From the IMG/VR virus record IMGVR_UViG_2882649382_000014: 20,000 nt of DNA. One strand, 5' to 3'. The notes under the pieces are model-generated. The model was not told the DNA's origin. It worked only from the letters and a program-made list of their open reading frames with translations, and did not search any database. Positions within the stretch are counted from its first letter, which is position 1, and each line of letters opens with the position of its first letter. The position numbers and the translations under genes were made by a program. This DNA comes from an uncultured virus (IMG/VR IMGVR_UViG_2882649382_000014) (taxonomy: Duplodnaviria; Heunggongvirae; Uroviricota; Caudoviricetes). This document shows positions 2,118 to 20,000 of the stretch, piece by piece.

Positions 2118-2140
2118 ATTTGCACATGATACAACGCCAT

Positions 2141-2187
2141 AGAAAACGCCGCAGGCTACCGAAATGGGATAGCCTACGGCGTTTTCT
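2141..2187. terminator. Long hairpin (terminator/attenuator-like) just upstream of the transposase RBS
   Basis: AGAAAACGCCGCAGGCTA (2141-2158) pairs with TAGCCTACGGCGTTTTCT (2170-2187), one mismatch. Confidence 0.6.
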
Positions 2188-2206
2188 TGTGAGAGGAGGG
2201 TACACA

Positions 2207-4983: not shown

Positions 4984-5042
4984 ATTTATGAAGATGGGCA
5001 ATAATGCCATATAAAAATAAGATAAACAACGAAATGGCCGTG

Positions 5043-5083
5043 AGGGTATTCTATCTCTATTTTGGATGGAATGCCCTTATTTT
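5043..5083 (+). terminator. Hairpin with T-rich tail (copy 1 of a repeated intergenic motif)
   Basis: AGGGTATTCTATC / GATGGAATGCCCT stem followed by TATTTT. Confidence 0.5.
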
Positions 5084-5172
5084 ACGTTCAAAATGGAGAA
5101 GGAGAACAAAAAGATTGGAGAAATATCATGCTTTTTGATAGCAGCTCAAAATGAAAGGAGGTCAGACAGTCT

Positions 5173-5409
5173 ATGAAAAACGGAAAAGAAGGATGGTGGA
5201 AAAGATTTTGCAGATTTCGGAAATCCAAAAAGAAGGGAAAAGAACCATCAAATCGGATGGATGAAATTTCAAGCCTAACTGATTCAGACGAAAAATCTGA
5301 ATATATATTCACAGATTCGGATGGTAATGTAATCGTGCCAAATGGTAGGAAGACGATGGAGATTATGCATCCAGGTTATAAAGAACACTTAAAAGAGGAA
5401 GGTTTTTGA
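5173..5409 (+). CDS. Hypothetical protein
   Basis: Strong RBS AAAGGAGGT; 78 aa; no family recognised. Confidence 0.6.
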   Translation: MKNGKEGWWKRFCRFRKSKKKGKEPSNRMDEISSLTDSDEKSEYIFTDSDGNVIVPNGRKTMEIMHPGYKEHLKEEGF

Positions 5410-5430
5410 TTATTATTGAAAACATATCTG

Positions 5431-5468
5431 GGGCATTCCATGAAGCTATATGGGATGCCCTGATTTTA
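5431..5468 (+). terminator. Hairpin with T-rich tail (copy 2)
   Basis: GGGCATTCCAT / ATGGGATGCCC followed by TGATTTTA. Confidence 0.5.
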
Positions 5469-5496
5469 TGCAGAAATCAAAAGGAAGGAGATTTAT

Positions 5497-5736
5497 ATGT
5501 GTGATTCTAAGGTGCTGTATTTGAAATTTGTAGGAATGGATTCGTGGGACAGGCCTGCGTATAAGGATGATGGTGGAACGCTATGGAAAGATGTAGATCC
5601 GAGAGCAGGAATAAAACCGAATTTATGTACTTCGGTAAATAATGAATTTGACGGTGAGCCGGACACAGACATGAAGTATTTGGAGAAATACCGGGGTGTG
5701 GCGGTTGCCTTTGAGCCGGAACGAATTGTGTGGTAA
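5497..5736 (+). CDS. Hypothetical protein (mobile-element type)
   Basis: RBS GAAGGAG; GMDSWDRPAYKD...LWKDVDP...FDGEPD looks like a conserved small protein of clostridial mobile elements. Confidence 0.7.
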   Translation: MCDSKVLYLKFVGMDSWDRPAYKDDGGTLWKDVDPRAGIKPNLCTSVNNEFDGEPDTDMKYLEKYRGVAVAFEPERIVW

Positions 5737-5755
5737 TAGGAAGGAGGATGCGGAC

Positions 5756-6394
5756 ATGGCAAGGAAAAGACCGATGACAACGGAAGAACTTTTCAACAGG
5801 ATAAATGGTATTTTGAAGGAGAAGGGCAGGCTGCCGGATATTCTGGATTACGGACTGGCAACGCACAGTCCTGTACCAATCACAAACTATGAGTATGGAT
5901 TGAAAAATAAGCTTGATTACGGAGGAAATGAAGGGCGCACAACGTCCGGTGGACGTTGGCTTTGCGCGGACCGAAGCGGAGCGGAGACCTATCTGGATAT
6001 GTGGATTGAATATACTGCAGACGGGAAAAGATGCGTAAGTGGTCTTGGTACTTTCAAGACTTTGCGGACGGATGACAAGGCTATGCATATTATGGCAGCC
6101 CTGTTAGCGGATTTCATCATAGAGGAGTATGCTTATGTCAACGCGAATTTAGATGACTTCACATGGGGCGCACGGCATCCGGGGGATGTCGGTTCTGCGC
6201 CGACCGGAGTGGAACGGAGAGGCGTAGATGTCCATGTGATTGAGGAATCAGGGGAGAAAAGCAAATGGGGATATTCCTGCGGGACAATGAAAGCGGCTCT
6301 GAAAAGAAAGGACGAACTGCTGATGAAATACAACAAAGTCATTGTCAGGGATAATGCGACAAGGAAAGAAAGAATCTATGAGAACGGGGGATGA
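5756..6394 (+). CDS. Hypothetical protein carrying two in-frame palindromic-repeat insertions
   Basis: RBS AAGGAGG favours ATG 5756; repeat-derived peptides RTTSGGRWLCADRSGAE and GARHPGDVGSAPTGVER. Confidence 0.75.
   Translation: MARKRPMTTEELFNRINGILKEKGRLPDILDYGLATHSPVPITNYEYGLKNKLDYGGNEGRTTSGGRWLCADRSGAETYLDMWIEYTADGKRCVSGLGTFKTLRTDDKAMHIMAALLADFIIEEYAYVNANLDDFTWGARHPGDVGSAPTGVERRGVDVHVIEESGEKSKWGYSCGTMKAALKRKDELLMKYNKVIVRDNATRKERIYENGG
5933..5988 (+). repeat. ~55-bp palindromic repeat, copy 1 (intragenic)
   Basis: GCGCA-CAACGTCC-GGT-GGACGTTG-GCTT-TGCGC-GGACCGAAGCGGAGCGGAGAC. Confidence 0.85.
6166..6220 (+). repeat. ~55-bp palindromic repeat, copy 2 (intragenic)
   Basis: GGCGCA-CGGCATCC-GGG-GGATGTCG-GTTC-TGCGCC-GACCGGAGTGGAACGGAGA. 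Confidence 0.85.
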
Positions 6395-6883
6395 ATATGT
6401 CTGTAAAAACGCATAAAAATACTACAAAAATAGACTGCAGGTGGGCAATCGGGCTACTCTTTGCGGAAGGGATTGCCTATGTTACTAAAATAGAGAACTA
6501 CCCCAAAAAATGTTTTTATTGGGAATCAGGAAAAGAGCTTCTCTATTTTGAAAGCAAGAGAGCTGCGGATGATTATGCTTTTGGCATGGAATATGTAACG
6601 GACGTGATACCGACGCCCGATTTTGTGGAAGTGCATGGAAGGGCTGGCGGTGATGATCTCTGTTTCCGTGTTTATCTATGAATTCTTCCAATATGCGGAA
6701 AATATTGAGAAGGAACATATAAATGCGTGCCTTATGTATGAGAATGTTATTGAGACACTCTACCAGCTCTACATAAAGTATGAGTACCTCAGATACAGCA
6801 GATGGGAGGATATCGAAGAAATGCACAGTGCACTGTTAGAAGAACAGAAGAAGTATGCGGAAACTGCAGAGTGCAGGAAATAA
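6391..6883 (+). pseudogene. Overlapping, probably fragmented hypothetical ORFs (6391-6681 and ~6650-6883)
   Basis: Two overlapping ORFs in different frames, the second lacking a clear RBS; looks like a deletion mosaic of mobile-element genes. Confidence 0.4.
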
Positions 6884-6897
6884 GCGGGGGTAATGGG

Positions 6898-7125
6898 ATG
6901 GGATGTTTAAAAGAAATCATTGATAACGAATTTTCAGCCGTTGTAATCGGTGTGATGAACTTTAAGCTTGACAGCATAAGCACATTGGCAGCAGAGCACA
7001 TGGATGCAAAGACGTATAAAGAGATTGACGGCGAAATGTCAAACCGCCTTGTGGAAATGTCAAAGGAGTTTTTCACGCAGGGCTTCCTTCGTGGTGTGGC
7101 TGCGGCGAAGGGCGGCGCTGTGTAG
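6898..7125 (+). CDS. Hypothetical small helical protein
   Basis: GGGGG RBS-like run before ATG 6898; ends in FFTQGFLRGVAAAK, a motif common in small clostridial mobile-element proteins. Confidence 0.55.
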   Translation: MGCLKEIIDNEFSAVVIGVMNFKLDSISTLAAEHMDAKTYKEIDGEMSNRLVEMSKEFFTQGFLRGVAAAKGGAV

Positions 7126-7204
7126 GGGCATAGCCGCATGGACTTATGGATATAAGATATGACCATGCCAAACCCCTTGATTTTCCGCAGTTATTCAAAT
7201 CACA

Positions 7205-7224
7205 TCAAAACTATTAAGTTTTGA
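7205..7224. promoter_or_regulatory. Palindrome, probable res site of the adjacent resolvase
   Basis: TCAAAACT-ATTA-AGTTTTGA about 100 bp upstream of a serine recombinase. Confidence 0.55.
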
Positions 7225-7229
7225 CCATG

Positions 7230-7274
7230 ATATCTCCGAAAGATGGCGGATTGCTTCTTTCGGAGATATTTTTT
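7230..7274 (+). terminator. Intrinsic terminator-like hairpin upstream of the resolvase
   Basis: ATATCTCCGAAAGA / TCTTTCGGAGATAT 14-bp stem followed by TTTTT. Confidence 0.7.
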
Positions 7275-7322
7275 CAGTGGAGAAAGAACAGCGGTAACGG
7301 AACATAGGAAAGAAGGTGGAAC

Positions 7323-7886
7323 ATGAAATACGGATATGCGAGAGTGAGCACCAAAGGACAGGCGAAAGACGGCAACAGCTTGGAGTATCAGGAACACGCC
7401 TTGAAAGATGCAGGGGCGGAAATCATATATATGGATGCATTTACCGGAACCAAATCACACAGGCCGGAACTGGATAAGCTGCTGAACGATATTCAGGACG
7501 GAGACATGCTGATCGTTACAAAATTAGACCGTATCGCCAGGAGCACCATGCAGGGGATTGAACTGATCGAGGCTCTGGTGGATAAAGGTGTGATTATCCA
7601 TGTACTGAATATCGGCATGATGGATCATTCACCGACAGGAAAGCTGATCCGGAATATCTTCCTCGCTTTTGCTGAGTTTGAGAGGGATATGATCGTGGAA
7701 CGTACGCAGGAGGGTAAGAGTATAGCGAAGCAGAATCCTGATTTTCGGGAGGGAAGGCCGAAAAAATATTCCAAAGCGCAGATAAGCCATGCTTTGGAAT
7801 TGTTGGATACATATTCTTATAAGAAGGATAAAGCGCGTGAATACAAGCGCTGTACTGCTGTTTATTGTCTTTGGCCATCCCGATGA
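7323..7886 (+). CDS. Serine recombinase (resolvase/invertase family), C-terminal HTH truncated by IS remnant
   Basis: [38 protein letters not shown]; sequence diverges into transposase antisense after ...LLDTYSYK (~7822), removing the recognition helix. Confidence 0.88.
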
Positions 7887-8474
7887 CGTCAAGGCCTCCT
7901 CTGGGGACAGCATGGATGAAAGGTTCGCTGGTGAACCACGTATCCATCAGTACACAGGATGCTTCAATGCCCGCTTCAAGCGCACTGTGGATCAGGGCAG
8001 CTGCAGCCTCCGGCTTCTTCATTATGGCATCTTCCCGCGCTTTTGCGCCATTGGTCCGCCTGTCAATAGATTCGTTTGCATGGTTTAGCAACAGCACAAA
8101 CCGTCTCCAGCTGTAATGGCAGTTGGACAGGAAATGGTAATATGTACTTTTCGCACACGCGGTGTCCTGCTTTTTGAACCAGGAAACCGGAACAGGTTTG
8201 TACCTTGGAACACCAGCATGAGGAGGAACTGGAAGATTTCAAACGCGGTACGCTTCTTCCCGCCATCCCCATTCCTGGAACGGCTGGCTTTACATATGTT
8301 GGACTGTTTTGTAGTATCATAAAGTTAGCATCTCCTCTCGTTTTTTTGAGTTTATGGGTTAACTTTATGATACCAGAGGCAGATGCTTTTTTCTATATCA
8401 ACAGGGCATTTTTTGTCTTAAATATATTAAGATTTATAAGGATTTCAGGTTGAAATCCTTATGGGAAAGTTGAG
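7823..8474 (-). mobile_element. Degenerate IS remnant (IS4/IS701-like DDE transposase pseudogene, frameshifted and internally deleted)
   Basis: Minus strand end CTCAACTTTCCC at 8474; RBS GAGGAG plus ATG 8320; fragments FEIFQFLLMLVFQG.NLFRFL, YSWRRFVLLL and IDRRTNGAKAREDA...VLMDTWF...LDVIGMAK in shifting frames. Confidence 0.75.
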
Positions 8475-8643
8475 TTATTAAGACTAAATAATTGCAGACT
8501 AAAAAGGTCGGAAATAAAGCATTTAAGGGGATTTACTCCAGAGTCAATATCAAAGTACCTAAATCAATACTTAAATCATATAAAAGGATATTAAGAGCAA
8601 AGGGTGCTATATGCAAGAAAATAAAATCTTACTCAGGTCTTTC

Positions 8644-8672
8644 TTGAATGAGCGTATAAGATATGTTAAAAT
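8644..8672 (+). promoter_or_regulatory. Sigma-A promoter upstream of structured leader and PfkB gene
   Basis: TTGAAT (8644-8649), 17 bp, TAAAAT (8667-8672) with extended -10 TG. Confidence 0.7.
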
Positions 8673-8679
8673 TTTCATA

Positions 8680-8796
8680 CGAAAAAGCCCTTCGACGGGG
8701 CGGCCGCCTCCCAAGCTGTCACTGTAAACTTAGCTGGTGTAATCTATGATTAGCCGGACTTACACCAGATGGGAGATGGCGCTGATGACAGATTAA
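8680..8796 (+). other. GC-rich structured leader RNA sequestering an SD-like sequence and an ATG of a 3-codon ORF
   Basis: GCCC/GGGC hairpin; CTCCCA (8708-8713)/TGGGAG (8770-8775); CTGTCA (8716-8721)/TGACAG (8786-8791); CTGGTGTAA (8734-8742)/TTACACCAG (8760-8768); ATG ACA GAT TAA at 8785-8796. Confidence 0.6.
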
Positions 8797-8852
8797 AGAA
8801 ATATATAATAACAATTTGTATTTAAAAACAGCTTTTGAAATAAAGCAGAAAG

Positions 8853-9785
8853 ATGAGGCAGAAAATGAGAGTAATAGTATCGGGATTAATTAATATTGAA
8901 ACAACACTAAAAGTTAGAAAGTTTCCAATTGATTATTATCCAATTGATTACCCTTTTTTTGGTATAAAATCAGGTGTTTCAGGTGTGGCTTATAATGTTG
9001 GAAAAGCTCTTTTGACATTGGGAAATGATATACAAATAACATCTTTTATTGGTGAAGATGAAGAAGGAGAGCGAATTTTATTAAATTTACAAGATGAAAG
9101 AATAGGAAATCAGTTTATTTATCGTGAATTAAAAGAAACGCCCGTTACAATAGCATTGTATGATGAGGAAGGAAAAAGACAAATATATTGTGATTTGAAG
9201 GACATTCAGGAAAAAAATATGGATTTTGATAGATTAGAAGCAACAATAAGAAATAGTGATTTGGTTGTTTTATGCAATACTAATTTCAACCGCTCATTAT
9301 TAAAAAAAGTAAGGGAGGCTGGGAGATTGATTGCTAGTGATGTTCATGTGTTAAGTGACATTGATGATGAATATAATAAGGAATTTATGGAATATGCAGA
9401 TATTTTATTTTTGAGTGATGAGCAATTGCCGAGTAGTGCAGAACGATTTCTTTTTGAAATGAAAGAAAAATATTTATCGAAAATTATAGTAATCGGACTT
9501 GGCCAGAAGGGAGCACTGTTATATGAACGTTCTAAAGATAAAATATACAGATTGGAGGCTGCTCATGTAGGTGATGTTGTGAATACTCTTGGTGCAGGAG
9601 ATGCATTATTTTCATGTTTTATTAATTATTACATGAAAGGATACTCAGCAGTAGAAGCCTTAACTCGTGCAGAGATATTTGCAGCGTTAAAAATTCGTTA
9701 TAATGGTGCAGCAAATGGATTTAGCAGCGAAGATATTGTGGAAAGGTATTATAGAAATGGTGGTGTAGCTGTACTAGTACAATAA
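8853..9785 (+). CDS. PfkB/ribokinase-family carbohydrate kinase
   Basis: SGVAYNVGKAL..LG N-terminal signature and VNTLGAGDALFSCF C-terminal signature; visibly AT-richer than flanking genes. Confidence 0.92.
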   Translation: MRQKMRVIVSGLINIETTLKVRKFPIDYYPIDYPFFGIKSGVSGVAYNVGKALLTLGNDIQITSFIGEDEEGERILLNLQDERIGNQFIYRELKETPVTIALYDEEGKRQIYCDLKDIQEKNMDFDRLEATIRNSDLVVLCNTNFNRSLLKKVREAGRLIASDVHVLSDIDDEYNKEFMEYADILFLSDEQLPSSAERFLFEMKEKYLSKIIVIGLGQKGALLYERSKDKIYRLEAAHVGDVVNTLGAGDALFSCFINYYMKGYSAVEALTRAEIFAALKIRYNGAANGFSSEDIVERYYRNGGVAVLVQ

Positions 9786-9857
9786 GGAAGGATAAGTTTC
9801 GGAGTTGTGTTCTATAATATAGCATCATGTATGGAAAATATGAATATAGCAGAAGAT

Positions 9858-10524
9858 ATTTATTCTGCGTAAAATTCATTCGGCATTTAACCGCCTTAGC
9901 AATATTTCCATGTAAATCTATATATCTTTATGCCAAATTGGTGTAGTAATGGTATAGTAACTTTAAAAAAGTTTGATGCAAATTCCCTATAGAAACAAAA
10001 TATTTTGGACACATGCATAGGTTCATGACAGGTAAAAGGATAAGGATTATCCTTAACTTGTTGTGGGCTTATTTTATTACTAAGGCGGTTAAATGTCGAT
10101 GTTTTTACTTGCCTAAATTTTTATCTGCTGCGTTGGTCTACGCTCCGCTACGGTCCGTGCTTAACAGATGTCCACCGGACATCTAGCACCATCAATCGCT
10201 GTAGCACTCGCTACAGCTCAATCTTTCGCCTTGCAGATAGAAATTTATTCTGCGTAAAATCCATTCGATATTTAACCGCCTTAGTAATATTAGGTGCTGC
10301 TGATTGGCTGGTTTTTATATAAAAGCAGTTTTTTGTGAATTGCTTTTATGCTTTTGTGAAAGAATTAATTGTAAGAAGCGGTTAAAAAATAATGCTGCCT
10401 TTTATGCAGTTATTTTTTTAACAATTCCTGAAGATGCAGTATAATGTTACTAAAGTGGTTAAATAGCAGTGTTTTTACCTGAGTATTCTGCGTAAATTTA
10501 CTGATATTTGACCGGCTTAGAATA
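9858..10524. repeat. Cluster of ~50-bp arms (core CTAAGGCGGTTAAAT) in alternating orientation, MITE/REPIN-like
   Basis: Arms at 9858-9906 (+), 10075-10128 (-), 10233-10291 (+), 10447-10483 (-), 10484-10524 (+); 9858-9906 and 10243-10291 match at 45 of 49 positions. Confidence 0.8.
10135..10190 (-). repeat. ~55-bp palindromic repeat, copy 3 (intergenic, nested in larger IR element)
   Basis: Reverse complement GGTGCT-AGATGTCC-GGT-GGACATCT-GTTA-AGCAC-GGACCGTAGCGGAGCGTAGACC. Confidence 0.85.
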
Positions 10525-10562
10525 GTTTTGTGGTAAATTCAGCAATCTGAGAGGAGAAAGTT

Positions 10563-11426
10563 ATGAAACGGATTATTAAAGAGAAAATGTTAGGGAATTT
10601 TGAAAGTTACCTGAAAAAAGCGGAAAAGAGCAAGGCTACCATCAGCAAGTATCTGTGTGATTTGCGGAAGCTGATAGAATATGCAGGCGGAAGGGAGATT
10701 AGCAAGGAACTGATGATTAATTATAAAGATAAGCTTTTAAACAAAGATGAGTACAAGGTTAGAAGTGTTAATTCTTTTTTGGCGGCTGCAAACTGTTTTC
10801 TGGAATATATGGGCTGGCATGATTTGAAGGTTAAGGCTTATAAGATACAGCAGGAAACGTTCTGCCCGGAAAATAAATGCCTTTCAAAAGAAGAATATTA
10901 CCGGCTTGTAGAGGCGGCAAAGAAAATGGGTAAGATACGGCTTGCAATGATTTTACAGACAATCTGCGCTACAGGCATCCGTGTCAGCGAGCTGGCGGCC
11001 GTTACTGTTTCTTCTGTGCGGAGTAATTCGGTGGTTATCCATAATAAAGGGAAAATAAGGGCAATCCTTTTGCCGGATGAACTAAGAAAGGAACTGCTTT
11101 ACTATATAGGGAGGAACGGAATACAAAAAGGGGCAGTGTTTTGTACCGCTTCAGGGAAGGCAGTGGACCGAAGCAATATCTGGAGGGAGATGAAAGCCCT
11201 CTGCAAAGTGGCAGATATTAATGAAGAGAAGGTATTTCCGCATAACCTGCGCCATTTGTTTGCCACTGTGTTTTATGCAATTAAAAAAGATATTGCAAAA
11301 TTGGCGGATATTCTCGGGCATAGCAGTATTGAAACAACAAGGATTTATATTAAAATGACCGGCAGGGAACACAAAAAGCAGCTTAACCGGATGAAACTTG
11401 TGCCGGTATGCTGTGCTACAGCGTAA
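10563..11426 (+). CDS. Tyrosine recombinase (XerC/D-like), probable DNA invertase
   Basis: RBS GAGGAG; full catalytic set TGIRVSE (R), NKGK (K), HNLRH, LGH, TTRIY (Y); N-terminal core-binding domain. Confidence 0.93.
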   Translation: MKRIIKEKMLGNFESYLKKAEKSKATISKYLCDLRKLIEYAGGREISKELMINYKDKLLNKDEYKVRSVNSFLAAANCFLEYMGWHDLKVKAYKIQQETFCPENKCLSKEEYYRLVEAAKKMGKIRLAMILQTICATGIRVSELAAVTVSSVRSNSVVIHNKGKIRAILLPDELRKELLYYIGRNGIQKGAVFCTASGKAVDRSNIWREMKALCKVADINEEKVFPHNLRHLFATVFYAIKKDIAKLADILGHSSIETTRIYIKMTGREHKKQLNRMKLVPVCCATA

Positions 11427-11527
11427 ATCTGACATGGCGGTGCAAAGATAAAGTATAGTATTTATGTTCGCGTGCACAACGGGCCAAACGCAGGCTTGCT
11501 TGCAGCGGAGGCTATAATTGTGGAAAG

Positions 11528-11560
11528 AAAAAAACTGTACGCTGCCTGCATACAGTTTTT
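11528..11560 (-). terminator. Bidirectional terminator, best on minus strand
   Basis: Minus strand ACTGTATGC-AGGCA-GCGTACAGT then TTTTTTCTTT; on plus strand the stem has a C-A mismatch and a 5-T tail. Confidence 0.8.
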
Positions 11561-11753
11561 ACAACATAATGATTATTATGTTATCCAAATACATATGCTA
11601 TTGTAACATGAAAGTCTTTGCATTTCAAGTTTTTTTCTGTTATTTCTATTATTTCCTCTTTTTACAGTTGGTGTTCATGAAATAACTAAATTCCGGGAAT
11701 TTTGGCATGGAATTTTGTTTAAATGCCAACATCATAATAATCATTATGTTGTA
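11560..11753. promoter_or_regulatory. Invertible segment bounded by perfect 21-bp inverted repeats, containing a minus-strand sigma-A promoter
   Basis: TACAACATAATGATTATTATG (11560-11580) and its exact reverse complement (11733-11753); minus strand TTGAAA (11628-11623), 17 bp, TACAAT (11605-11600) with extended -10 TG. Confidence 0.88.
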
Positions 11754-11783
11754 GGGCAATATTTTGAAGCAGGGAGGGGAATT

Positions 11784-12512
11784 ATGCCATCTATTTTATC
11801 AATTCCGAGAAATACAATGAGGAAGCGGGATGGGAATGCTTTGCTAAGGATTGAAAGGGCAACAGGGGAGAGCAGTACTTTTGTGTGCCAATTTAACCCG
11901 GATCAGTATCATATTAATGTAAAAGGTAAACTAAATAAAATAGAACGGCAGGGAGAAGATTCCCCAATTGTTCAGTTTATGGGGGGAAGCAGCTCTGTTT
12001 TGGATTTGAAATTATTTTTTGATACGAGTACGTCCTATGAAATTAAGACGGGAATGGGTTTTAGAAAGCCCAAGAAGGAAAAAGCACAGGATGTGTCTGT
12101 CTATACTGAGACACTGATGTCTTTGGTACGCATTGAGGGAAAGGCGTGCCGGCCGCCTTTAGTGACATTTTCATGGGGATCTCTTCTGTTTAGCGGGCTT
12201 GTGGAGAATGTAGATGTAAATTACACTATGTTTGAAAAAGGAGGGATACCGGTTCGTGCAGAAGTATCCTTGAATATTGTTTCTGCAAAATTAAAACCGC
12301 TGGATACGGTAAAATTAAAAGCAAAAGAGCCTTCGGCCGGTACGAAGTGTGTTACCATGACTTCGGACAGCAGTCTATGGGATATAGCGGAAAAAGAGTA
12401 TGGTGATGCGTCTCATTGGAAGGATATAGCTGAGGAAAATAATATACTGAATCCGTTAGAGGTTTCGGCCGGGACACAGTTAAAAGTCCCGGCATTGCCG
12501 GAAGTGAGGTAG
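11784..12512 (+). CDS. Contractile injection system tube-initiator-like protein with C-terminal LysM (Afp7/Pvc7-like)
   Basis: RBS GGGAGGGG favours ATG 11784; CQFNP..Y, QFMGG....L.L.LFFDT, RPPLVTFSWG, YTMF...G.PVRAEV; LysM DSSLWDIAEKEYGDASHWKDIAEENNILNP...GTQLKVP. Confidence 0.85.
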   Translation: MPSILSIPRNTMRKRDGNALLRIERATGESSTFVCQFNPDQYHINVKGKLNKIERQGEDSPIVQFMGGSSSVLDLKLFFDTSTSYEIKTGMGFRKPKKEKAQDVSVYTETLMSLVRIEGKACRPPLVTFSWGSLLFSGLVENVDVNYTMFEKGGIPVRAEVSLNIVSAKLKPLDTVKLKAKEPSAGTKCVTMTSDSSLWDIAEKEYGDASHWKDIAEENNILNPLEVSAGTQLKVPALPEVR

Positions 12513-12515
12513 GAT

Positions 12516-13598
12516 ATGCCGGATTTGATGACAGGGACATATACTTTTGAAGCATTAGCATCAAAATATGGAAATTTTTGTGTCCCGCTGATTAGAATTA
12601 GGATGAATGGCACAGAGCTGGTTTCGGCTTTGAAATTGTCTGTTGTGGATATCAAAGTAACTTTATCGCTTCATGCTGCAGGTATGGTGTTATTTAAGCT
12701 TGGAGGATTGTATGATGCAAAAAGCCACTCTTTTGATAAAAAGATAAAGAGTTACTTTGCACTGGGAAGTATTATGGAAGTGGAACTTGGTTATTTGTCC
12801 CATACATGCAAAATTTTTAAAGGGTTTGTAGCAATGCTTGGGGCAGAATTTAGCCGGGCGCCGTTTTTGGTAGTTACCCTGATGGATGCCAGAAGGCTGA
12901 TGATGTTAAGCGGAAGCCAATATATGCTCCATGAGGTGGTGAATTACTCTGATGCATTTAAAACAATTATTGCAAAATATTCTAAGCTTTGTTCGCCGGA
13001 AATTGATGCTACGGATGACAGCCTGGAAAGACCCTTGTCACAGACGCAGAATGATTATCTTTTTGTGACGAAGGAGCTGGTTAAGAATGGAAAAGTTGAC
13101 AGGGAATTTTTTGTGCTGGGGAGTAAGGTGTATTTCCGAAAGCCCAGGAGGGTGAAGCAGCCTATTATGACATTGCAGTATGGGCGTGAACTTTTGGCGC
13201 TGAAGATAGATGAAGAATACCAGGATTTAAAAGTAGAGGTAATAGGTTATGATGGCCAGGCGCAAAATGTTGTAGCCGGAAGCGCAGCAGTTAAGAAAAA
13301 TAAGAACCAAAAGAAGCTTTTTTCTTCTGCACAGGTATTTACTGTGGCAGATCCTGCGGTTAATACGCAGAAAAAGGCAAATGAAAAGGCAAGTGTTATT
13401 GCAAAAGAGAAGGAATGGAAAGCGCGCAGCGGACGGGGAGTTACCATGGGGCTTCCGGAACTGGTGCCGGGGCGTTTTGTTAAGGTAGAAGCCCTGGAAA
13501 AGGACTATGGCGACCATGAATATTATATTGAGAGCGTTGTCCATACAATTGATAATGAGAGTTTTCGGACAACCTTTGAGATTGGAGGCTGGGAGTAA
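12516..13598 (+). CDS. Phage late-control D / gp27-like baseplate hub
   Basis: EVELGY...IFKGFV, SQTQNDYLFV, VYFRKP, VEVIGYD, G.PELVPG..V.V.......YYIESVVHTI...FRTTFE. Confidence 0.85.
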   Translation: MPDLMTGTYTFEALASKYGNFCVPLIRIRMNGTELVSALKLSVVDIKVTLSLHAAGMVLFKLGGLYDAKSHSFDKKIKSYFALGSIMEVELGYLSHTCKIFKGFVAMLGAEFSRAPFLVVTLMDARRLMMLSGSQYMLHEVVNYSDAFKTIIAKYSKLCSPEIDATDDSLERPLSQTQNDYLFVTKELVKNGKVDREFFVLGSKVYFRKPRRVKQPIMTLQYGRELLALKIDEEYQDLKVEVIGYDGQAQNVVAGSAAVKKNKNQKKLFSSAQVFTVADPAVNTQKKANEKASVIAKEKEWKARSGRGVTMGLPELVPGRFVKVEALEKDYGDHEYYIESVVHTIDNESFRTTFEIGGWE

Positions 13599-14365
13599 TG
13601 GGAATGATTGGCGACTGGATTATCAGTGGTGCCGATGAAAGGATTTGCAGCGTCACGACCGGGCTTGTGAAAAATAATTGGGATGATGGGCATCCGGGGA
13701 TGGTGAAAGTAGAGTATTTTCTTGGGACGCAGGGAAAAAATGTGACCGGATGGCTTCCTGTAGCAGTTCCTTATGCATATGATAACTGTGGAATGTATAT
13801 GCTGCCGGAAATAGGTTCAGAGGTAGTTGTTGCTTTTAATATGGGGGACAGGAACTGCCCGATTGCCATTGGATGCCTCTGGAACCGGAAAAATAAGCTG
13901 ATGGGGGATACTGCGGCAGAGGGCAATAAAATTAAGCGCTTTAAGACAAAGGGAGGCTGTGAGGTAGTATTTGAAGAGGAAAAAGGAAAAGAAGTCATTG
14001 AGGTTCATACGCCGGCTGATTTGAAACTTCGGATGGAGGATGAGAACCAGACAGTAGCGATACAGGATAAAGAAAAGAAAAATGGTGTATTGATTGACGC
14101 AAAGGAAGGAAGCATAAAACTTTTTGCAGATAAGAAAATAACTTTTGAGGCGGGCGGGAAAGCAATGGTGGTATTGGATGGGAGTAAAAAATCTTTGGAA
14201 GTTAAGGCAGATGAGGTGAAAGGAGAAGCAGCCAGATCCTATACATTAAAGGGGCAGAATGTGCAATTAGAGGGAACACAGATGGACATTAAGGGGAAGA
14301 GCCAGTTATCTGTGCAGTCCGGTGGAATGGCACAAATTAAGGGTGCTTCAGTTAAGATTAATTAA
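13598..14365 (+). CDS. Baseplate assembly protein V / gp5-like spike (OB-fold plus beta-repeat)
   Basis: GLVKNNWDD...GMVKV...WLPVA.PYA...GMYMLPEIGSEVVVAF..GD...PIAIGCLWN; beta-rich C-terminus ending IKGASVKIN. Confidence 0.9.
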   Translation: MGMIGDWIISGADERICSVTTGLVKNNWDDGHPGMVKVEYFLGTQGKNVTGWLPVAVPYAYDNCGMYMLPEIGSEVVVAFNMGDRNCPIAIGCLWNRKNKLMGDTAAEGNKIKRFKTKGGCEVVFEEEKGKEVIEVHTPADLKLRMEDENQTVAIQDKEKKNGVLIDAKEGSIKLFADKKITFEAGGKAMVVLDGSKKSLEVKADEVKGEAARSYTLKGQNVQLEGTQMDIKGKSQLSVQSGGMAQIKGASVKIN

Positions 14366-14420
14366 GTATTGGGCTGGCATCCTGTTGCTGGGACAGTTTC
14401 TAAGGGAATGGGGGATATTT

Positions 14421-14834
14421 ATGGAACAGAGTGATCCGAAGGCGTTCCTGGGGGTGGGGGTTAAGTTTCCGATCCAGGCAGATAAAAATACAGGACGGAT
14501 TAAGGAGTCTTCTTATGAAGAAGATATTCAGGAGGCAATTCGCATTATTCTTTCTACCAGAAAAGGTGAGAGAATCCGTAATCCACACTTTGGATGTGGA
14601 ATCTATGATTATGCCTTTGAGGCGTTGGATGATACGACAATGAGCGCGGTGAAGCACGAGGTAGAAATGGCGTTGGTTTTGTGGGAGCCCCGGATTGAGA
14701 ATATAGAGGTGGCGGTTGATGCCAGGCAGGAGGAAGGCGTTCTTTTGATTGAAATAGGATATGTAGTTAGAAGTACGAATAATCCATTTAATTTGGTATT
14801 CCCATACTATATTAATGAAGGCTTTGGAGGATGA
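14421..14834 (+). CDS. GPW/gp25-family baseplate protein (Afp9-like)
   Basis: FLG.G.KFP, EEDIQEAIRIILSTRKGERI..P.FGCGI, WEPRI, NLVFPYY; start reassigned to ATG 14421. Confidence 0.92.
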   Translation: MEQSDPKAFLGVGVKFPIQADKNTGRIKESSYEEDIQEAIRIILSTRKGERIRNPHFGCGIYDYAFEALDDTTMSAVKHEVEMALVLWEPRIENIEVAVDARQEEGVLLIEIGYVVRSTNNPFNLVFPYYINEGFGG

Positions 14835-14837
14835 TAG

Positions 14838-17828
14838 ATGGAAGAGGGAATCAGTCAGGGGATACAGCGGAATATCCACAAACGGGCAGAGAGTTATACT
14901 CCGGAGTGGCGTTTTCAGCCAGAAAGTTTAGATATTGGTTCTGCACTGGCGGTTGTCTATGCAGAAATGATGGCAGGAACTGTTAAGGCGTTTTCTAAGG
15001 TTATGCTTAAAAACCGAATAGCTTTTTTGAATGGACTGGATGCTGACATATTGCCGGCAGTCCCATCCCATGGGTATATACAGTTTTCTCTTATTAATGA
15101 AGAGGTGGAAGGCGCTGAAGTGGAAACAGGCACAACAGTGACTGCCAATGATGATAACCTGCCGGACGGGCAGGCTGCCTTTGAAACCAGGGATGATATC
15201 TTTGTGACGCCGGCTGCAGTATCGGATATTTATCAGGTATGTGACAGGCGGGATTTGATTTACAGGCTTTATGACAGGCAGGAAATGGAATGGAACCCTT
15301 TTTCCATGTTTGGTTTTGGCGGCATAAATTTACAAAAGCATGAAATGTATTTTTGTTATGATAGCCTTTTGTATATCCGCACAGAGGCACATATTGATTT
15401 TCGCTGGCTTAGCTGGGGTGGTATGGAGCTAAACGCAGAATATATAAATTTGTTAGCGGATTCTAAAAAAGCTGCCTTTGAATATTATACAGCGGAGGGG
15501 TGGGCGGCATTTGACGAGGTGGAAAAGACAGGAAAAGGTTTAGCTTTCCATAAAAATAAATCTCAGCCACAATTTACAAAAAAGGAACTGGAAGGAAAAG
15601 AGGGTTACTGGATTCGATTGAGGATTCTGGACTTTGCATTGTTTTCTAAGATGAGTTTATCCTGTGTGCGTCTTTCGGCGCAGAGCCGGGATATGCTGCC
15701 TGATATCGTTTTCGGTACGGAAGGGGAGAGTAACCTGAACCGGTATTTTCCATTTGGGGAAAGGCTTGGGCTGTATCAGGAAGTTTACTTTGGATCAGAG
15801 GAGATACTGTCAAAAAAAGGGGCGCAGGTGACGCTTTCTTTTGGGATTCGTTTTGCAAAAATTCCTCTTGAAACAAATAGCGGGGATGAACTGCATTGGG
15901 AATGGATTATGAAGCAAAGCGACTTTAAGCAGGATGTATCGTTTGACGTTACGGTAGAATCGGTTATTTGGGAGTATTATAACGGTTTTGGGTGGACAAG
16001 GCTTTTTGCGGATGACCGGTATCACCGTATTTTCTCTGTTACAGACGGAACCGGAGGACAGTACAGGTCATTGCAGTTTATCTGTCCGGAAGATATAGAA
16101 AAAACGATAGTAAATGCGGCAGAGACTTACTATATACGTGCCCGTATTATGAAAATAAACAATCTGTATAAGCTGAAAGGGCATTATGTAGTTCCATGCC
16201 TGGAGAATACTTCCTTTTGTTACCGATATCCCGAGGAAGGGGCGGAGCCATTAGCATATATTTTTCATAATAATCTGATGAACAGCTTAATATATGGGAG
16301 GGATATCAGGGAAAAAGAACCTTTTTTGCCGTTTTGCCAGACGGACACGGAGAATACAGGCGTCTATTTTGGGTTTGAAGCGGCGCCAATGGGAAATCCG
16401 GTAAAGATGCTGTTTTGTATTGCAAATGACAGAAATCGCAGCCGGCAGCCGCTGCTTTGGGAATACTGGACAAGGAAAGGCTGGAAAAATGTGAATCCGG
16501 CAGATGAAACAGATTATCTTTCCAAGACAGGGATTATTACATTTGCGGGAAATACAGATATGGAAAAAAAGAGACTCTTTGGAAAAGAGCGATATTGGTT
16601 TCGGATTCGGGATATCGGAGATTCCTATTTTTCAGAAGAGGCTAAAGTGGATTTGCCAGTACTTCAAAGGATATATATGAACACAACAACGCTGCAAAAT
16701 ATATACAAAAGAGAACGGGAATATTTCAGGATGGAGATATTTCGGAAAGGACAGCGGTTTAGGCTTCTGGAAGGTAATGTATATGCTGCAAGGGTGTTTG
16801 TAGATGAGACTGGGTATCTGTCAGAACAGGAGTTGGAAAATCTGAAAGTGGAAGGGCTTATTTCGATTGAGGCAGATGATAACGGAATGCCAGAAAGGAT
16901 ATGGGTGGAATGGAAGCGGGTGCCTGATTTTTCAGAATCGGGTTCTACGGACCGGCATTTTGTTCTGTATGCTTTCCGTGGCGAATTGGTATTTGGGGAT
17001 GGAAGGCATGGGAGGATTCCTGCTATTTCCAGGATGGAAAACATTCGCATTGATTATTGCTGCGGGGGCGGGGCGTATACAAACCTGAAGGAAGGGAAAA
17101 TTGGCAGATTAGATAGGGCCATTGGATATATTAGCGGGGTGACAAACCCTGTGGCAATGTCCGGCGGCTGTAATGCAGAGACTCTGGAGGAAGCAGTGAA
17201 AAGGGAGTCGGCGGCGATACGGCACCAAAACAGGGCCGTTTCGGCGAAAGATTATGAGGAACTTGCCATGTGTGCGTCAAGGGAGATTCAATTGGCGAAA
17301 TGTTTTGCAGGGTATGATGCTTTGGGGAGACGCTCTGGTGGCGCAGTAACCTTGGTGGTACTGCCAAAACAGTTCCGTAAGGGGCAGATGGATTTTGCGC
17401 CTCTAAAGGAAAAAGTGCTGCAATATATGAAAGACAGGGTGAGCGTTTTTCTGCAGAACAGCCAAAAATTTTTTGTGGTGCATCCGGAGTTTATTGAAAT
17501 AAGGCTTTACATAGAGTTAAGTGTGGGAAATTTTAATGAGGTGTTTCGGGTAAAAAAAGAAATTCTGGAACGTTTAGAAAAGTTTTTGAGCCCTGCAGGG
17601 CGGCAGGGGGCAGAGGAAGGATGGGAGATAGGGAATTTTCCTAATATAATGCAGATACAAAATGCAATTAGTGATATCAGGGGAATTATTTATATCCGCA
17701 ATATTATGATGAGCACTTACACTGCGAATCCTGTCAGGCAGGAGGAGGTAGATGTTGAAAAGGTAAGGAAACACCGGTATGTTCTTCCGGTGAATGGGGA
17801 ACATGAAATTATCATTCATGTGGGATAA
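14838..17828 (+). CDS. Large baseplate J/gp6-like protein (eCIS type)
   Basis: YTPEW...DIGSAL, FET, WEY repeats, FGDGRHGRIP, YCCGGG...N, GG..AETLEEA...RAVSAKDYEELA, GAVTLVVLP. Confidence 0.88.
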   Translation: MEEGISQGIQRNIHKRAESYTPEWRFQPESLDIGSALAVVYAEMMAGTVKAFSKVMLKNRIAFLNGLDADILPAVPSHGYIQFSLINEEVEGAEVETGTTVTANDDNLPDGQAAFETRDDIFVTPAAVSDIYQVCDRRDLIYRLYDRQEMEWNPFSMFGFGGINLQKHEMYFCYDSLLYIRTEAHIDFRWLSWGGMELNAEYINLLADSKKAAFEYYTAEGWAAFDEVEKTGKGLAFHKNKSQPQFTKKELEGKEGYWIRLRILDFALFSKMSLSCVRLSAQSRDMLPDIVFGTEGESNLNRYFPFGERLGLYQEVYFGSEEILSKKGAQVTLSFGIRFAKIPLETNSGDELHWEWIMKQSDFKQDVSFDVTVESVIWEYYNGFGWTRLFADDRYHRIFSVTDGTGGQYRSLQFICPEDIEKTIVNAAETYYIRARIMKINNLYKLKGHYVVPCLENTSFCYRYPEEGAEPLAYIFHNNLMNSLIYGRDIREKEPFLPFCQTDTENTGVYFGFEAAPMGNPVKMLFCIANDRNRSRQPLLWEYWTRKGWKNVNPADETDYLSKTGIITFAGNTDMEKKRLFGKERYWFRIRDIGDSYFSEEAKVDLPVLQRIYMNTTTLQNIYKREREYFRMEIFRKGQRFRLLEGNVYAARVFVDETGYLSEQELENLKVEGLISIEADDNGMPERIWVEWKRVPDFSESGSTDRHFVLYAFRGELVFGDGRHGRIPAISRMENIRIDYCCGGGAYTNLKEGKIGRLDRAIGYISGVTNPVAMSGGCNAETLEEAVKRESAAIRHQNRAVSAKDYEELAMCASREIQLAKCFAGYDALGRRSGGAVTLVVLPKQFRKGQMDFAPLKEKVLQYMKDRVSVFLQNSQKFFVVHPEFIEIRLYIELSVGNFNEVFRVKKEILERLEKFLSPAGRQGAEEGWEIGNFPNIMQIQNAISDIRGIIYIRNIMMSTYTANPVRQEEVDVEKVRKHRYVLPVNGEHEIIIHVG

Positions 17829-17912
17829 AAAAAGGTATATATAGAAGGGAAAAGACCGCAGCTATGATTGCCTGATAAAGGGAAAGGTTCTGTAGGAAAA
17901 GGGGTGGTATAT

Positions 17913-20000
17913 GTGTTGCCAGACATCAGTTTGGATGAAAAAAGCTATGATGAAATACTGGATGAAGCGATAAACATGGTGATTAGCAAGTATCCTGGAT
18001 GGACAGATTTTAATGAGCATGATCCGGGAATTACCATGCTGGAACTTTTCGCTGTGTTAAAGGAAAGCCAGCAGTTTTTTGCAGGCAGGATTGGTGAAGA
18101 AAATAGGAAAAAGTACTTGAAATTGCTGGGAATGCAAAGAAAAACGAAACAGCCTGCAGAAAGCCTGGTTCATATTAAGGCAGATGGGAACTATGGGCTT
18201 CTTTATGGGCACAGGCTGGAGGCAGAAGGCCTTTGCTTTGAGACTGCGCATAAAAAGCAGCTGGCCGGGGAGGATGTTTGTGGCTGCATGGCAGTGAGTG
18301 AGGGGAAAATAGAGGATTTTATCAGCCGCAGGCAGATGGAGTTTAGTGGTATTCTGCGTTTTTGGAGTTTTGGGAAGAAGCCGGCACAGGGAAATACCAT
18401 GTATATTTGTTTTGGGGAAAGACTTCCAGAGAAGACGCTGTTAGATTTATTTGTAGAAGTATATAAAGGCTATAGTGTGAAAAGAAATCCACCGGAAGCC
18501 GGTTTTGTGCCGTTAGTGCAGCTGCAGTGGCAGTATTATACGGAACAGGGATGGAAGGAGTTAGAAAAGCTTCAGGATGAAACCTGTGCATTTCTTTTTG
18601 ATGGTTTTATTCGGTTTGTGTTGGAATGTCCTATGAAGCGGGCAGAAGTTATGGGGCGGCAGGGGTATTTTATCCGTGCAGTGCTTAGGGAAGGGGAATA
18701 TGATGCAGCCCCCGCCATAACAAGAATCAGCATGAATATATGCCGCGTAATACAACGTGAAACGCTGGTGGAATGTCTGATACAGGAAGAAATACAAAGC
18801 AGCATCAAAATTAGTACAGAACTTTGCGTCCTGGGCAGGAGTGAGATTTATATCGGAAAAGATGGGATTTTTTATCCCGTGGAAGACTTTACAAAAGATA
18901 TTTGTGAAGATGAGGGCGCAGTGAGATTTGATATTGAGGATGATAGGCTTGACAGCGCAGATTGTGTGATGGTACTTAACAGGGATCTATCATATCTTCA
19001 CAAAAGGAGAGCTGGTGTGGGAAATGGGTTTCCCGGCCAGGAAATTAATCTGGAGGATTTGCAGGTTTTATATGATGGTTTGGAAATATTGATACAGGAT
19101 GTGGAAAAGAAAGACGGTTTCTGCCTTTGGGAGAAAGTAGAGGATTTTGCAAGATCATCCCCGGAGGACAGGCATTACATATTTGATTCCGACAGGGGGA
19201 TGATTCGGTTTGGGGATTGTATTCATGGGATGGCGCCTGAAGGGGAAATTTTACTGGCAGGATATGTGAGGACCATGGGGAGTGATGGGAATGTGAAAGC
19301 AGGAAAAATCAACCGTTTCCGTATGCAGGGGCTGGAGGGGCTGAATCTTTCCAATATATGCGACGGAACCGGGGGATGCGATGAAGAAACGTTAGAGGAT
19401 AGTTTCTTTCGGGCAGGGCAGAGCCTGAAAAGGGCGGAATGTGCCGTTACAGGGCGGGATTATGAAGAATATGTCATGAAAACACCGGGGCTGATGATTG
19501 AAAGCTGCAAGATACTGCATCTAGACCATGTCAGGCAGTTTATCCAAAATGTTGATGAAATGACGGCTTATCTGGTGGTAAAACCGTATGGATGGAAAAA
19601 GGGCAGCCGGATAGAGGATATTTATGTACAAAATATTAAAAATTATCTGGAGCGTTACCGGATGGCTGGCAGCCAGGTGTTTATTTTTTTCCCGGAGTAT
19701 GTGGAGCTTGAGGTATATACAGAGGTAGTTGTTAAGCCGCAGTACCTTCATGTGGGAGAAAGGGTGAAACAGGCGGTTTACAGTTTTTTTGGCAGCTATC
19801 AGGAGACTTTTGGAAGCGTAATTGCCTATAGCAAACTGTATGGTTATCTTGACAGGCAGGAGTTCATTTTGGGCATCCGTTCCCTTAGCATGGATTGCAG
19901 GGGAAATAGCGTAAAAAGAAGCGCAGATGGGGATATTGTGCTGTCCCCTTATGGAATTGCCGTTTTGAAAGAGGTAAAGGCGGTATTGACGGCAGGTTAA
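17913..20000 (+). CDS. Second baseplate J/gp6-like protein (eCIS type)
   Basis: Probable GTG start 17913; LP.ISLD...Y, PGWTDFNEHDPGITMLELFA, IRFGD...G..P, GG.DEETLE, AVTGRDYE; stop TAA at 19998-20000. Confidence 0.88.
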   Translation: MLPDISLDEKSYDEILDEAINMVISKYPGWTDFNEHDPGITMLELFAVLKESQQFFAGRIGEENRKKYLKLLGMQRKTKQPAESLVHIKADGNYGLLYGHRLEAEGLCFETAHKKQLAGEDVCGCMAVSEGKIEDFISRRQMEFSGILRFWSFGKKPAQGNTMYICFGERLPEKTLLDLFVEVYKGYSVKRNPPEAGFVPLVQLQWQYYTEQGWKELEKLQDETCAFLFDGFIRFVLECPMKRAEVMGRQGYFIRAVLREGEYDAAPAITRISMNICRVIQRETLVECLIQEEIQSSIKISTELCVLGRSEIYIGKDGIFYPVEDFTKDICEDEGAVRFDIEDDRLDSADCVMVLNRDLSYLHKRRAGVGNGFPGQEINLEDLQVLYDGLEILIQDVEKKDGFCLWEKVEDFARSSPEDRHYIFDSDRGMIRFGDCIHGMAPEGEILLAGYVRTMGSDGNVKAGKINRFRMQGLEGLNLSNICDGTGGCDEETLEDSFFRAGQSLKRAECAVTGRDYEEYVMKTPGLMIESCKILHLDHVRQFIQNVDEMTAYLVVKPYGWKKGSRIEDIYVQNIKNYLERYRMAGSQVFIFFPEYVELEVYTEVVVKPQYLHVGERVKQAVYSFFGSYQETFGSVIAYSKLYGYLDRQEFILGIRSLSMDCRGNSVKRSADGDIVLSPYGIAVLKEVKAVLTAG

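Follow-up and report, generated by a model that had tools for sequence, protein, structure and literature searches.

What decides whether a bacterial cell builds a contractile injection system? The question is raised by a 20,000-nt stretch of DNA (IMG/VR record IMGVR_UViG_2882649382_000014; hereafter the window, whose positions are used wherever no contig is named), in which a tyrosine recombinase gene, a short segment bounded by inverted repeats and the genes of an extracellular contractile injection system (eCIS) follow one another. The particles of such systems are reported to be released after cell lysis (PMC8213781; this and the other papers below are cited from the portions available). 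Because release follows lysis, eCIS production is costly for the producing cell, and its regulation is poorly understood. Here we propose, with a probability of roughly 80%, that the segment is an invertible promoter (inverton), captured in the OFF orientation, that controls the eCIS. A promoter flip would be a new regulatory idea for eCIS biology; the mechanism itself is textbook, and it is the cargo and the family context that are new.

Architecture of the switch

A preliminary description of this DNA, made from its letters, had placed a tyrosine recombinase and then a perfect 21-bp inverted repeat ahead of the first gene of a contractile injection system. It had also claimed that a near-consensus promoter between the repeats points away from those genes, with no good rightward promoter nearby. 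Each of these statements held up when the sequence was examined with domain searches, a repeat search and a consensus scan. The two repeats, left (IR-L) and right (IR-R), are 100% complementary over 21 nt, enclose a segment of 152 nt and adjoin the recombinase gene (Table 1). Perfect inverted repeats spaced within 600 bp reached at most 15 nt in 200 mononucleotide shuffles of positions 5096-20000. Each site is built as CATAA-TGATTA-TTATG and, by reading of the sequence, its arms extend outwards to about 10 bp with symmetry at 8 of 10 positions; the 6-bp centre is asymmetric and is inverted between the two sites. Each site also contains a small internal palindrome that could fold in a minus-strand transcript, and an Rfam scan of 9700-11900 returned no family at its gathering score.

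The recombinase matches Phage_integrase (PF00589) at 89.5 bits, against a cut-off of 27.1, and two SAM-like N-terminal domains at 24.1 and 22.7 bits (cut-off 22.3). Tyrosine recombinases use the catalytic set R-K-H-R-H/W-Y, for which R140, K164, H227, R230, H253 and Y262 are the candidates here; the motifs GIRVSEL, NKGKIR, HNLRH, GHSS and TRIY align with those of the XerC-like 4a8e and of XerA 5hxy. Judged by its sequence, the enzyme is full-length and intact, with its catalytic motifs present. The Xer/dif architecture that had been ascribed to the sites stands in part: the arm-centre-arm layout is there, but the recombinase falls below every Xer cut-off of NCBIfam (best XerA, 147.8 against 220; XerD, 112.7 against 329.6; XerC, 106.4 against 335.15), and where dif is a single site per replicon, the genome holds 13 sites, arranged as inverted pairs beside paralogous recombinases. 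The site resembles dif in layout only.

The promoter inside the segment agrees with the consensus at 10 of 12 positions, carries a TG before the -10 element and an A-tract upstream, and reads leftwards as sequenced, which is OFF for the eCIS. By the same scan, no plus-strand promoter reaches 9 of 12 matches between 11427 and 11784, the best fixed rightward match being 8 of 12, so that the outward promoter within the segment is not accompanied by a fixed one before the cargo. A scripted flip of 11581-11732 brings the -35 element to 11685 and the -10 element to 11708-11713, i.e. a promoter at 11685-11713 on the plus strand. The predicted start then falls at about 11720, 64 nt upstream of ATG 11784, within the 60-65 nt that the preliminary description had given for the inverted form.

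The hairpin between the recombinase gene and the left site folds on the minus strand at -23.3 kcal/mol (z, -4.8; 0 of 200 shuffles as good) and on the plus strand at -12.6 kcal/mol (z, -3.0). We read it as a two-way terminator, which would stop recombinase transcripts from one side and, after about 65 nt, transcripts of the OFF promoter from the other. A script motif recovers such a recombinase-side hairpin in four of the seven recombinase-side flanks of the genome, and reading of the flanks adds the loci L044-L049. Relative to the orthologous region of another species (locus L048), a 47-bp GC-rich insertion lies at 11467-11513, between the recombinase stop and this hairpin.

A family of switches in the same genome

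The same 21-mer occurs at 13 sites in the genome (12 exact and one with one mismatch; a reversed control gives 0), which contains at least six modules of recombinase, inverted repeat and promoter, the eCIS copy being one of them. Seven of the 13 sites lie directly downstream of recombinase genes and the other six face cargo, which in one case is the eCIS. The recombinase paralogues are 75-79% identical where full-length (contigs C31, C70, C244 and C46) and 78% identical where partial (C121 and C163). The closest relative of the window enzyme, however, is not a paralogue in the same genome but the L048 recombinase, at 91% identity, which precedes a helicase-led operon.

Each of the other five cargo-side flanks belongs to an operon whose first gene encodes a DEAD/ResIII helicase, with helicase-associated (HA) domains in four of the five. 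On C46, C90 and C206 the helicase is followed by a DegT aminotransferase, a Bac_transf priming transferase and glycosyltransferases, and on C157 a Bac_transf gene and a glycosyltransferase are seen; by gene content, these four are capsule or exopolysaccharide loci. C33 has a truncated helicase and, after it, nuclease-family genes of the Uma2 and PDDEXK_9 types. The helicases of the sister operons (L016, C46:57898-72000; L017, C90; L018, C206; L021, C157; L015, C33) are large, with 5-6 HA domains; by analogy, the HA-domain helicase may be an operon-specific factor with a role like that of UpxY in Bacteroides. A leader hairpin, GGCTGTGTTGGCATGCGCAGCC within CCGG...CCGG, stands 10-20 nt past the cargo-side site of each of the five capsule switches. 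The genome has no further copy of it, the eCIS switch included, and no Rfam family matches it at its gathering score.

The division of the segment given in Table 1 derives from an alignment of six complete switches of the family together with a pairwise alignment with L048. Across the six, the sites, the -10 and -35 elements, their spacing and a promoter module of about 88 bp are kept and the rest of the segment is not, the two hexamers being invariant in 6/6. Window and L048 are collinear, bar the 47-bp insertion, from the 3' end of the recombinase gene through the hairpin and the left site to the end of the promoter module at about 11669, and are unrelated from there on. By these sequence comparisons, the switch belongs to a multi-copy capsule-type family, of which the copy with the eCIS as cargo is the odd member. 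Most simply, a switch of the capsule type would have gained a new cargo in this lineage.

The module also occurs in other Lachnospiraceae genomes. At up to two mismatches, the 21-mer is found in 24 of 400 other family genomes and forms inverted pairs in five. In four other genera the paired sites keep the CATAA/TTATG arms and have a 6-bp centre other than TGATTA, namely TTATTA (G107), TGATGA (G194), TAAATA (G214) and TGCTTA (G318), and each centre is the same in both partners of its pair. Strand exchange by tyrosine recombinases requires matching crossover centres, and the identical centres within each pair therefore support the tyrosine-recombinase site model. The inverted pairs at L053 (G107), L063 (G194), L074 (G214), L060 (G318) and L058 (G100) enclose differing internal segments, and those of G214 and G318 have the opposite polarity, with their TACAAC ends facing each other. 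In public collections, the 21-mer matches two AT-rich, apparently unrelated loci in metagenome_contigs and none in viral_contigs; a 38-mer of the cargo-side flank gives 0 matches in either.

Both orientations occur in the family

The preliminary description had proposed comparing orientation in related genomes as a check. We judged it against the conserved flanks, recombinase and hairpin on one side and leader and helicase on the other, in six fully assembled switches, and both orientations were found. The promoter end lies beside the recombinase (OFF) in four of them, i.e. the window, C46, L048 and L049, and beside the cargo (ON) in the other two. One of these is in the same genome (C70+C157, two contigs joined by their own 55-nt overlap); the other, L044, belongs to another Lachnospiraceae metagenome-assembled genome and is flanked by a 79%-identical recombinase and a helicase. 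The module is hence repeated within the genome and in other Lachnospiraceae and occurs in the family in both orientations, which supports the reading of the segment as a flipping promoter.

Eight of the 13 assembly junctions carry the promoter end, against at most seven recombinase-side flanks, and one and the same variant of the promoter end stands at the tips of C163, on the recombinase side, and of C90, on the cargo side. The pattern points to a sister locus of mixed orientation. The eight promoter-end junctions could also stem from an extra unassembled copy or a strain mixture, the assembly containing allelic bubbles. Walking from contig ends recovered no short contigs that could represent the interiors of the sister switches, and for this reason the junction count is only suggestive of mixed orientation.

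The eCIS gene cluster

Pfam domains bear out the assignment of the downstream genes to a contractile injection system. Residues 177-241 of the 11784-12512 product match PHROG baseplate and endolysin families, and we read its C-terminal part as LysM-like, of the tube-initiator type. Beyond the window, the genes of Table 1 are continued by a Tail_P2_I-like gene, a MORN-repeat gene, a Pvc16_N cap, DUF4280, an AAA ATPase with a winged-helix domain (WHD), an eCIS_core/DUF4157 protein, the sheath and two gp19 tube proteins. The eCIS-specific parts score 90.5 bits (Pvc16_N, which we take to be the DUF4255 of the published core list), 100.7 bits (AAA, with the WHD at 39.5) and 44.8 bits (eCIS_core). 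That list includes gp19 tube, sheath, gp25, Baseplate_J, AAA ATPase, tail terminator and DUF4157 as core domains (Geller et al. 2021, PMC8213781). Here, the sheath, gp19 tube, gp25, Baseplate_J and spike genes stand in one cluster with the eCIS-specific Pvc16_N cap, AAA ATPase and DUF4157/eCIS_core genes, and no head, portal or terminase Pfam family was matched among the open reading frames from 11784 to C183:1080, eight of which have no family above cut-off. Because the core domains are present and no head, portal or terminase family was matched, we take the cluster, by domain content, for a complete eCIS of about 34 kb and not for the tail module of a prophage.

The eCIS genes are co-directional on one strand with short gaps, baseplate genes first and sheath and tube last, and the cluster reaches as far as C183:1080, beyond which the genes change direction. 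Promoter-like matches within it number 9, 36 and 11 against shuffle expectations of 16.6, 34.7 and 13.5. These simple scans show no promoter enrichment and no convincing intergenic terminator inside the cluster, which weakly favours a small number of transcription units. A homologue of the first gene occurs in 15 of 400 other family genomes, with a best identity of 47%; the distribution is patchy.

Several features of the cluster and its borders are recorded here in their own right. The last eCIS gene is split in the assembly, between the right end of C182 and C183 (L081), by a 605-bp contig (C148, L082) that overlaps itself by 59 nt, indicating a tandem repeat inside the gene, and an Amidase_3 cell-wall hydrolase gene (C183 1121-1660) lies on the opposite strand, convergent with it. 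Between the PAAR-like gene and the ATPase (L024:9336-15855 = G000 C182:23335-29854) stand four genes without a known eCIS role, encoding a formyl transferase, an ABC-type substrate-binding protein, a 779-aa MFS protein and a Cache-HAMP-SpoIIE(PP2C) sensor phosphatase. Insertion of the eCIS between the switch and an old capsule operon was considered and rejected: no orphan leader motif was found, and the cluster ends at C183:1080 with convergent genes next to it.

Table 1 Features of the switch, the eCIS genes and the sister loci (window positions, except for the leader hairpin copies)
Feature	Position	Strand	Remarks
Tyrosine recombinase, 287 aa, Xer-like two-domain build	10563..11426	+	Pfam PF00589 and SAM-like N-terminal domains
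Candidate recombinase promoter	10418..10445	+	TTAACA-16-TATAAT, 11/12, consensus match only; overlaps MITE-like half-copy
Hairpin, A-run / 13-bp stem / T-run	11530..11560	.	Between recombinase gene and left site; minus-strand terminator call
Left recombination site IR-L	11560..11580	+	TACAACATAA-TGATTA-TTATG; exact 21-mer
Invertible segment (predicted), 152 bp	11581..11732	.	Left ~88 bp (to ~11669), conserved promoter module; remainder locus-specific
Segment promoter (predicted)	11628..11600	-	-35 TTGAAA 11628-11623, 17-nt spacer, TG, -10 TACAAT 11605-11600; consensus scan
Right recombination site IR-R	11733..11753	-	Exact reverse complement of IR-L
Shine-Dalgarno-like AGGGAGGGG	11770..11778	+	Ends 5 nt before ATG 11784
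CIS tube-family protein, first eCIS gene	11784..12512	+	Pfam CIS_tube 111.1 bits
gpD-like baseplate hub protein	12516..13598	+	Weak: Phage_GPD E 0.001, below cut-off; PHROG tail protein
Spike protein, gp5/VgrG OB-fold	13598..14365	+	Phage_base_V 65.5 bits
gp25-like baseplate wedge / sheath initiator	14322..14834	+	GPW_gp25 84.1 bits; true start may be later than 14322
Baseplate J-like protein, 996 aa	14838..17828	+	Baseplate_J 31.1 bits
Second Baseplate J-like protein, 710 aa	17868..20000	+	Baseplate_J 26.3 bits; cluster extends past window
Leader hairpin copies	C33:84-105, C46:58277-58298, C90:87386-87407, C157:70-91, C206:44006-44027		Genome G000

Proposed mechanism

We propose a mechanism in which the recombinase of the window, or a paralogue sharing the identical site, would bind the arms of about 10 bp in both sites and carry out strand exchange within the asymmetric 6-bp centre TGATTA. 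As the two centres face opposite ways, this would invert 11581-11732. In the OFF orientation, the TTGAAA-17-TGnTACAAT promoter would fire leftwards through IR-L into the hairpin and T-run at 11530-11560, where its transcript would end. In the ON orientation, it would fire rightwards from about 11720 through IR-R. The transcript would open with a leader of 64 nt, followed by the ribosome-binding site and ATG 11784, and would go on to cover the baseplate, cap, ATPase, sheath and tube genes. Such a cycle would result in heritable yet reversible ON/OFF heterogeneity of eCIS production, and control of the eCIS in this manner could be a form of bet-hedging, with a presumed fitness rationale in the cost of the particles.

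If this is true, the switch would provide a simple genetic basis for a division of labour between few producers and many non-producers, and its orientation could be scored in metagenomes and, in the laboratory, fixed so that cultures produce the particles. We also entertain a bolder version, tentatively and with somewhat more doubt than belief, in which a capsule-type module has been co-opted to make the whole eCIS a stochastic, heritable ON/OFF trait, the first case of an eCIS promoter controlled by DNA inversion, and in which paralogous recombinases could cross-flip this switch and at least five capsule switches with the identical site, which would couple eCIS production to capsule type.

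Evidence against the proposal and alternative explanations

A number of observations on the eCIS copy itself weigh against the proposed inversion. Its inverted form was not found: the assembly contains none of 18 ON-specific 31-mers, and no inversion joint is seen in any of four runs (4/4; Logan contigs of depth 4.5-17, a type of contig that drops rare variants). Contigs of 8481 and 20575 nt from X1 and X5, possibly the source sample, extend at a depth of about 12 from 11569 across the segment and the right site to within the eCIS genes and show the OFF arrangement; the contigs of X8 and X18 leave 11602-11786 uncovered and show no joint. The stretch occurs in sequencing runs listed in 20 rows from 9 studies, none of which is recorded as RNA. 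In the assembly and in X1/X5, the locus is as the preliminary description had called it, captured OFF. It is OFF in the majority wherever seen, and a minority ON form is compatible with the contig data. The segment is also shorter than those of its sisters (152 bp vs 257-331 bp), its right part is unrelated to them, and the cargo-side flank is without the leader hairpin of the five capsule loci.

The association of this site with an eCIS likewise does not recur among relatives. The 15 family genomes that have a homologue of the first eCIS gene and the 24 that bear the site (<=2 mismatches) do not overlap, and none of the three other exact-site genomes has a full-length homologue of this gene. 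Upstream of the tube-initiator gene, the eCIS loci of relatives (5 of the 15: L027, L029, L033, L035 and L036) have no arm resembling the 21-mer, and in G098 another open reading frame precedes the homologue. Lastly, the promoter and the terminator are predictions, by consensus match and by folding, and a single 34-kb transcript over the cluster is something that we infer.

Several of these observations would equally suit a fossil or locked switch, i.e. a descendant of a capsule inverton that no longer flips, with the eCIS silent or under some other, signal-dependent promoter. Only the OFF form appears in the assembly and in the X1/X5 contigs, the assembly of C182 continues unbroken across the switch, neither the right half of the segment nor the cargo flank is related to the sister switches, and the Cache-HAMP-SpoIIE sensor phosphatase within the cluster could point to signal-dependent control. 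We nevertheless consider this explanation unlikely. Mismatches would be expected in a decaying switch, whereas both 21-bp sites are perfect and match the 11 sister copies, the recombinase is full-length with its catalytic motifs, and the promoter hexamers are unchanged. Moreover, the assembly breaks at the sister loci are explained by promoter ends common to the paralogues, and the unbroken assembly at the eCIS switch therefore says little.

It seems very improbable to us that the recombinase and the repeats belong to a mobile element, as an integrase with attachment sites or terminal repeats by which the eCIS island arrived or is moved, and form no regulatory switch at all. The patchy occurrence of the eCIS noted above, the position of the recombinase at the edge of the island, its PHROG name (integrase) and the presence upstream of a serine recombinase, an IS30-type transposase and repeats resembling miniature inverted-repeat transposable elements (MITEs) would fit such an element. 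The repeats, however, enclose neither the recombinase nor the island but only 152 bp with a conserved promoter, and inverted sites give inversion, not excision. The same module precedes five capsule-type operons, the L048 recombinase likewise stands before a helicase-led operon, and the segment occurs in the family in both orientations. Scarcely any weight attaches to the idea that the repeats act without DNA inversion, as an RNA-level attenuator or a protein-binding operator palindrome: each site does contain a small foldable palindrome, but a stem with a 152-nt loop would be unusual for an attenuator, a tyrosine recombinase adjoins every module, and in C70+C157 and L044 the homologous segment is physically inverted between conserved flanks.

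Comparison with known systems

As an invertible promoter, the eCIS switch has well-known counterparts. In E. coli fimS, the tyrosine recombinases FimB and FimE act on 9-bp repeats around an invertible promoter segment of about 314 bp that precedes the fimbrial operon. Both loci combine a recombinase gene, a short inverted-repeat segment with an outward promoter and a structural operon, and the direction of the promoter sets ON or OFF. Our locus differs from fimS in its 21-bp repeats and 152-bp segment, in having one recombinase per locus and at least six loci with an identical site, in the conserved terminator hairpin that faces the OFF promoter, and in its eCIS cargo and Firmicutes host.

In Bacteroides, a global serine invertase, Mpi, flips most capsule promoters; here, in a different phylum, each locus has its own tyrosine recombinase, and the window copy has an eCIS as cargo. 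Several capsular-polysaccharide operons of Bacteroides lie behind invertible promoters with a shared repeat (PMC10403206, PMC11685472). The likeness consists in multiple capsule-type operons within one gut bacterium, with a dedicated first gene that is UpxY there and the HA-domain helicase here. The present family would amount to an analogous set of recombinase-linked invertible promoters before capsule-type operons in rodent-gut Lachnospiraceae.

RecV of Clostridioides difficile is a single tyrosine recombinase that acts on several dissimilar sites, mostly away from its gene, and some of its switches act post-initiation. These switches are the closest to ours in phylogeny, the host being from the same broad bacterial group, and like ours they are flipped by a recombinase and lie upstream of operons. 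RecV-dependent inverted-repeat switches upstream of operons are described in PMC7446863 and PMC9286219, the available portions of which report no eCIS among the RecV targets.

DNA inversion is tied to a contractile particle in tailocins as well: in carotovoricin Er and in Xenorhabdus it swaps tail-fibre ends and changes the target range (PMC10598620), whereas here it would switch the promoter of the whole machine. The eCIS regulators named in the available portions of PMC8213781 are RfaH, GerE/LuxR-type and BTAD transcription factors. Our locus is similar in its core domain set and in encoding the control element beside the operon, and differs in that this element is a DNA switch. The same survey, as far as available, finds eCIS depleted from mammalian microbiomes and mildly enriched in gut Bacteroides and Parabacteroides; the present eCIS, by comparison, resides in a mouse/rat-gut Lachnospiraceae host and has its modules in the order baseplate first, sheath and tube last.

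A literature search (open full text, with subscription papers and supplements outside its scope) returned no inversion-controlled eCIS promoter, in keeping with the preliminary description, to which no described phase-variable eCIS in gut Firmicutes was known. The same search returned no description of the Lachnospiraceae switch family; large inverton catalogues could list the locus without comment. Neither an invertible eCIS promoter nor this switch family is described in the available portions of PMC10598620, PMC8213781, PMC11602134, 10.64898/2026.10.01.755998 and PMC13121745.

Upstream surroundings

The region upstream of the recombinase contains further elements. A MITE-like element with 25-bp terminal inverted repeats (TATTACTAAGGCGGTTAAAT...) occupies 9880-10465, as one full copy (10075-10289) and two half-copies, one of which overlaps the candidate recombinase promoter. 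Its terminal repeats have about 100 matches genome-wide, mostly as pairs 137 or 190 bp apart, and the idea that the repeats at 9880-10465 form a second switch, a chain of inverted sites, was rejected on the grounds that they are MITE-like copies.

A small serine recombinase of 187 aa is encoded at 7323-7886 (Resolvase domain, 129 bits), with a weak likeness to XisF and Mpi-type invertases and no convincing inverted-repeat pair near it. Two readings of the assembly were also dismissed. The window crosses three contigs, C207, C165 and C182, which overlap by 64-65 nt and so do not amount to unrelated contigs glued together, and C164 and C165 do not form an inversion bubble, as they differ by 45 substitutions in 557 nt, with a direct identity of 0.89 and a reverse-complement identity of 0.27. 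At 4603-5159, C165 has C164 as its alternative allele, so that the assembly must contain more than a single strain or copy. Farther out, 8-11 kb upstream of the switch, lie a gene for an endolysin-like protein (384-1265), with ELLD and peptidoglycan-binding domains, and a transposase gene (2120-3238), with HTH_38 and rve integrase-core domains, which we take to be of the IS30 type.

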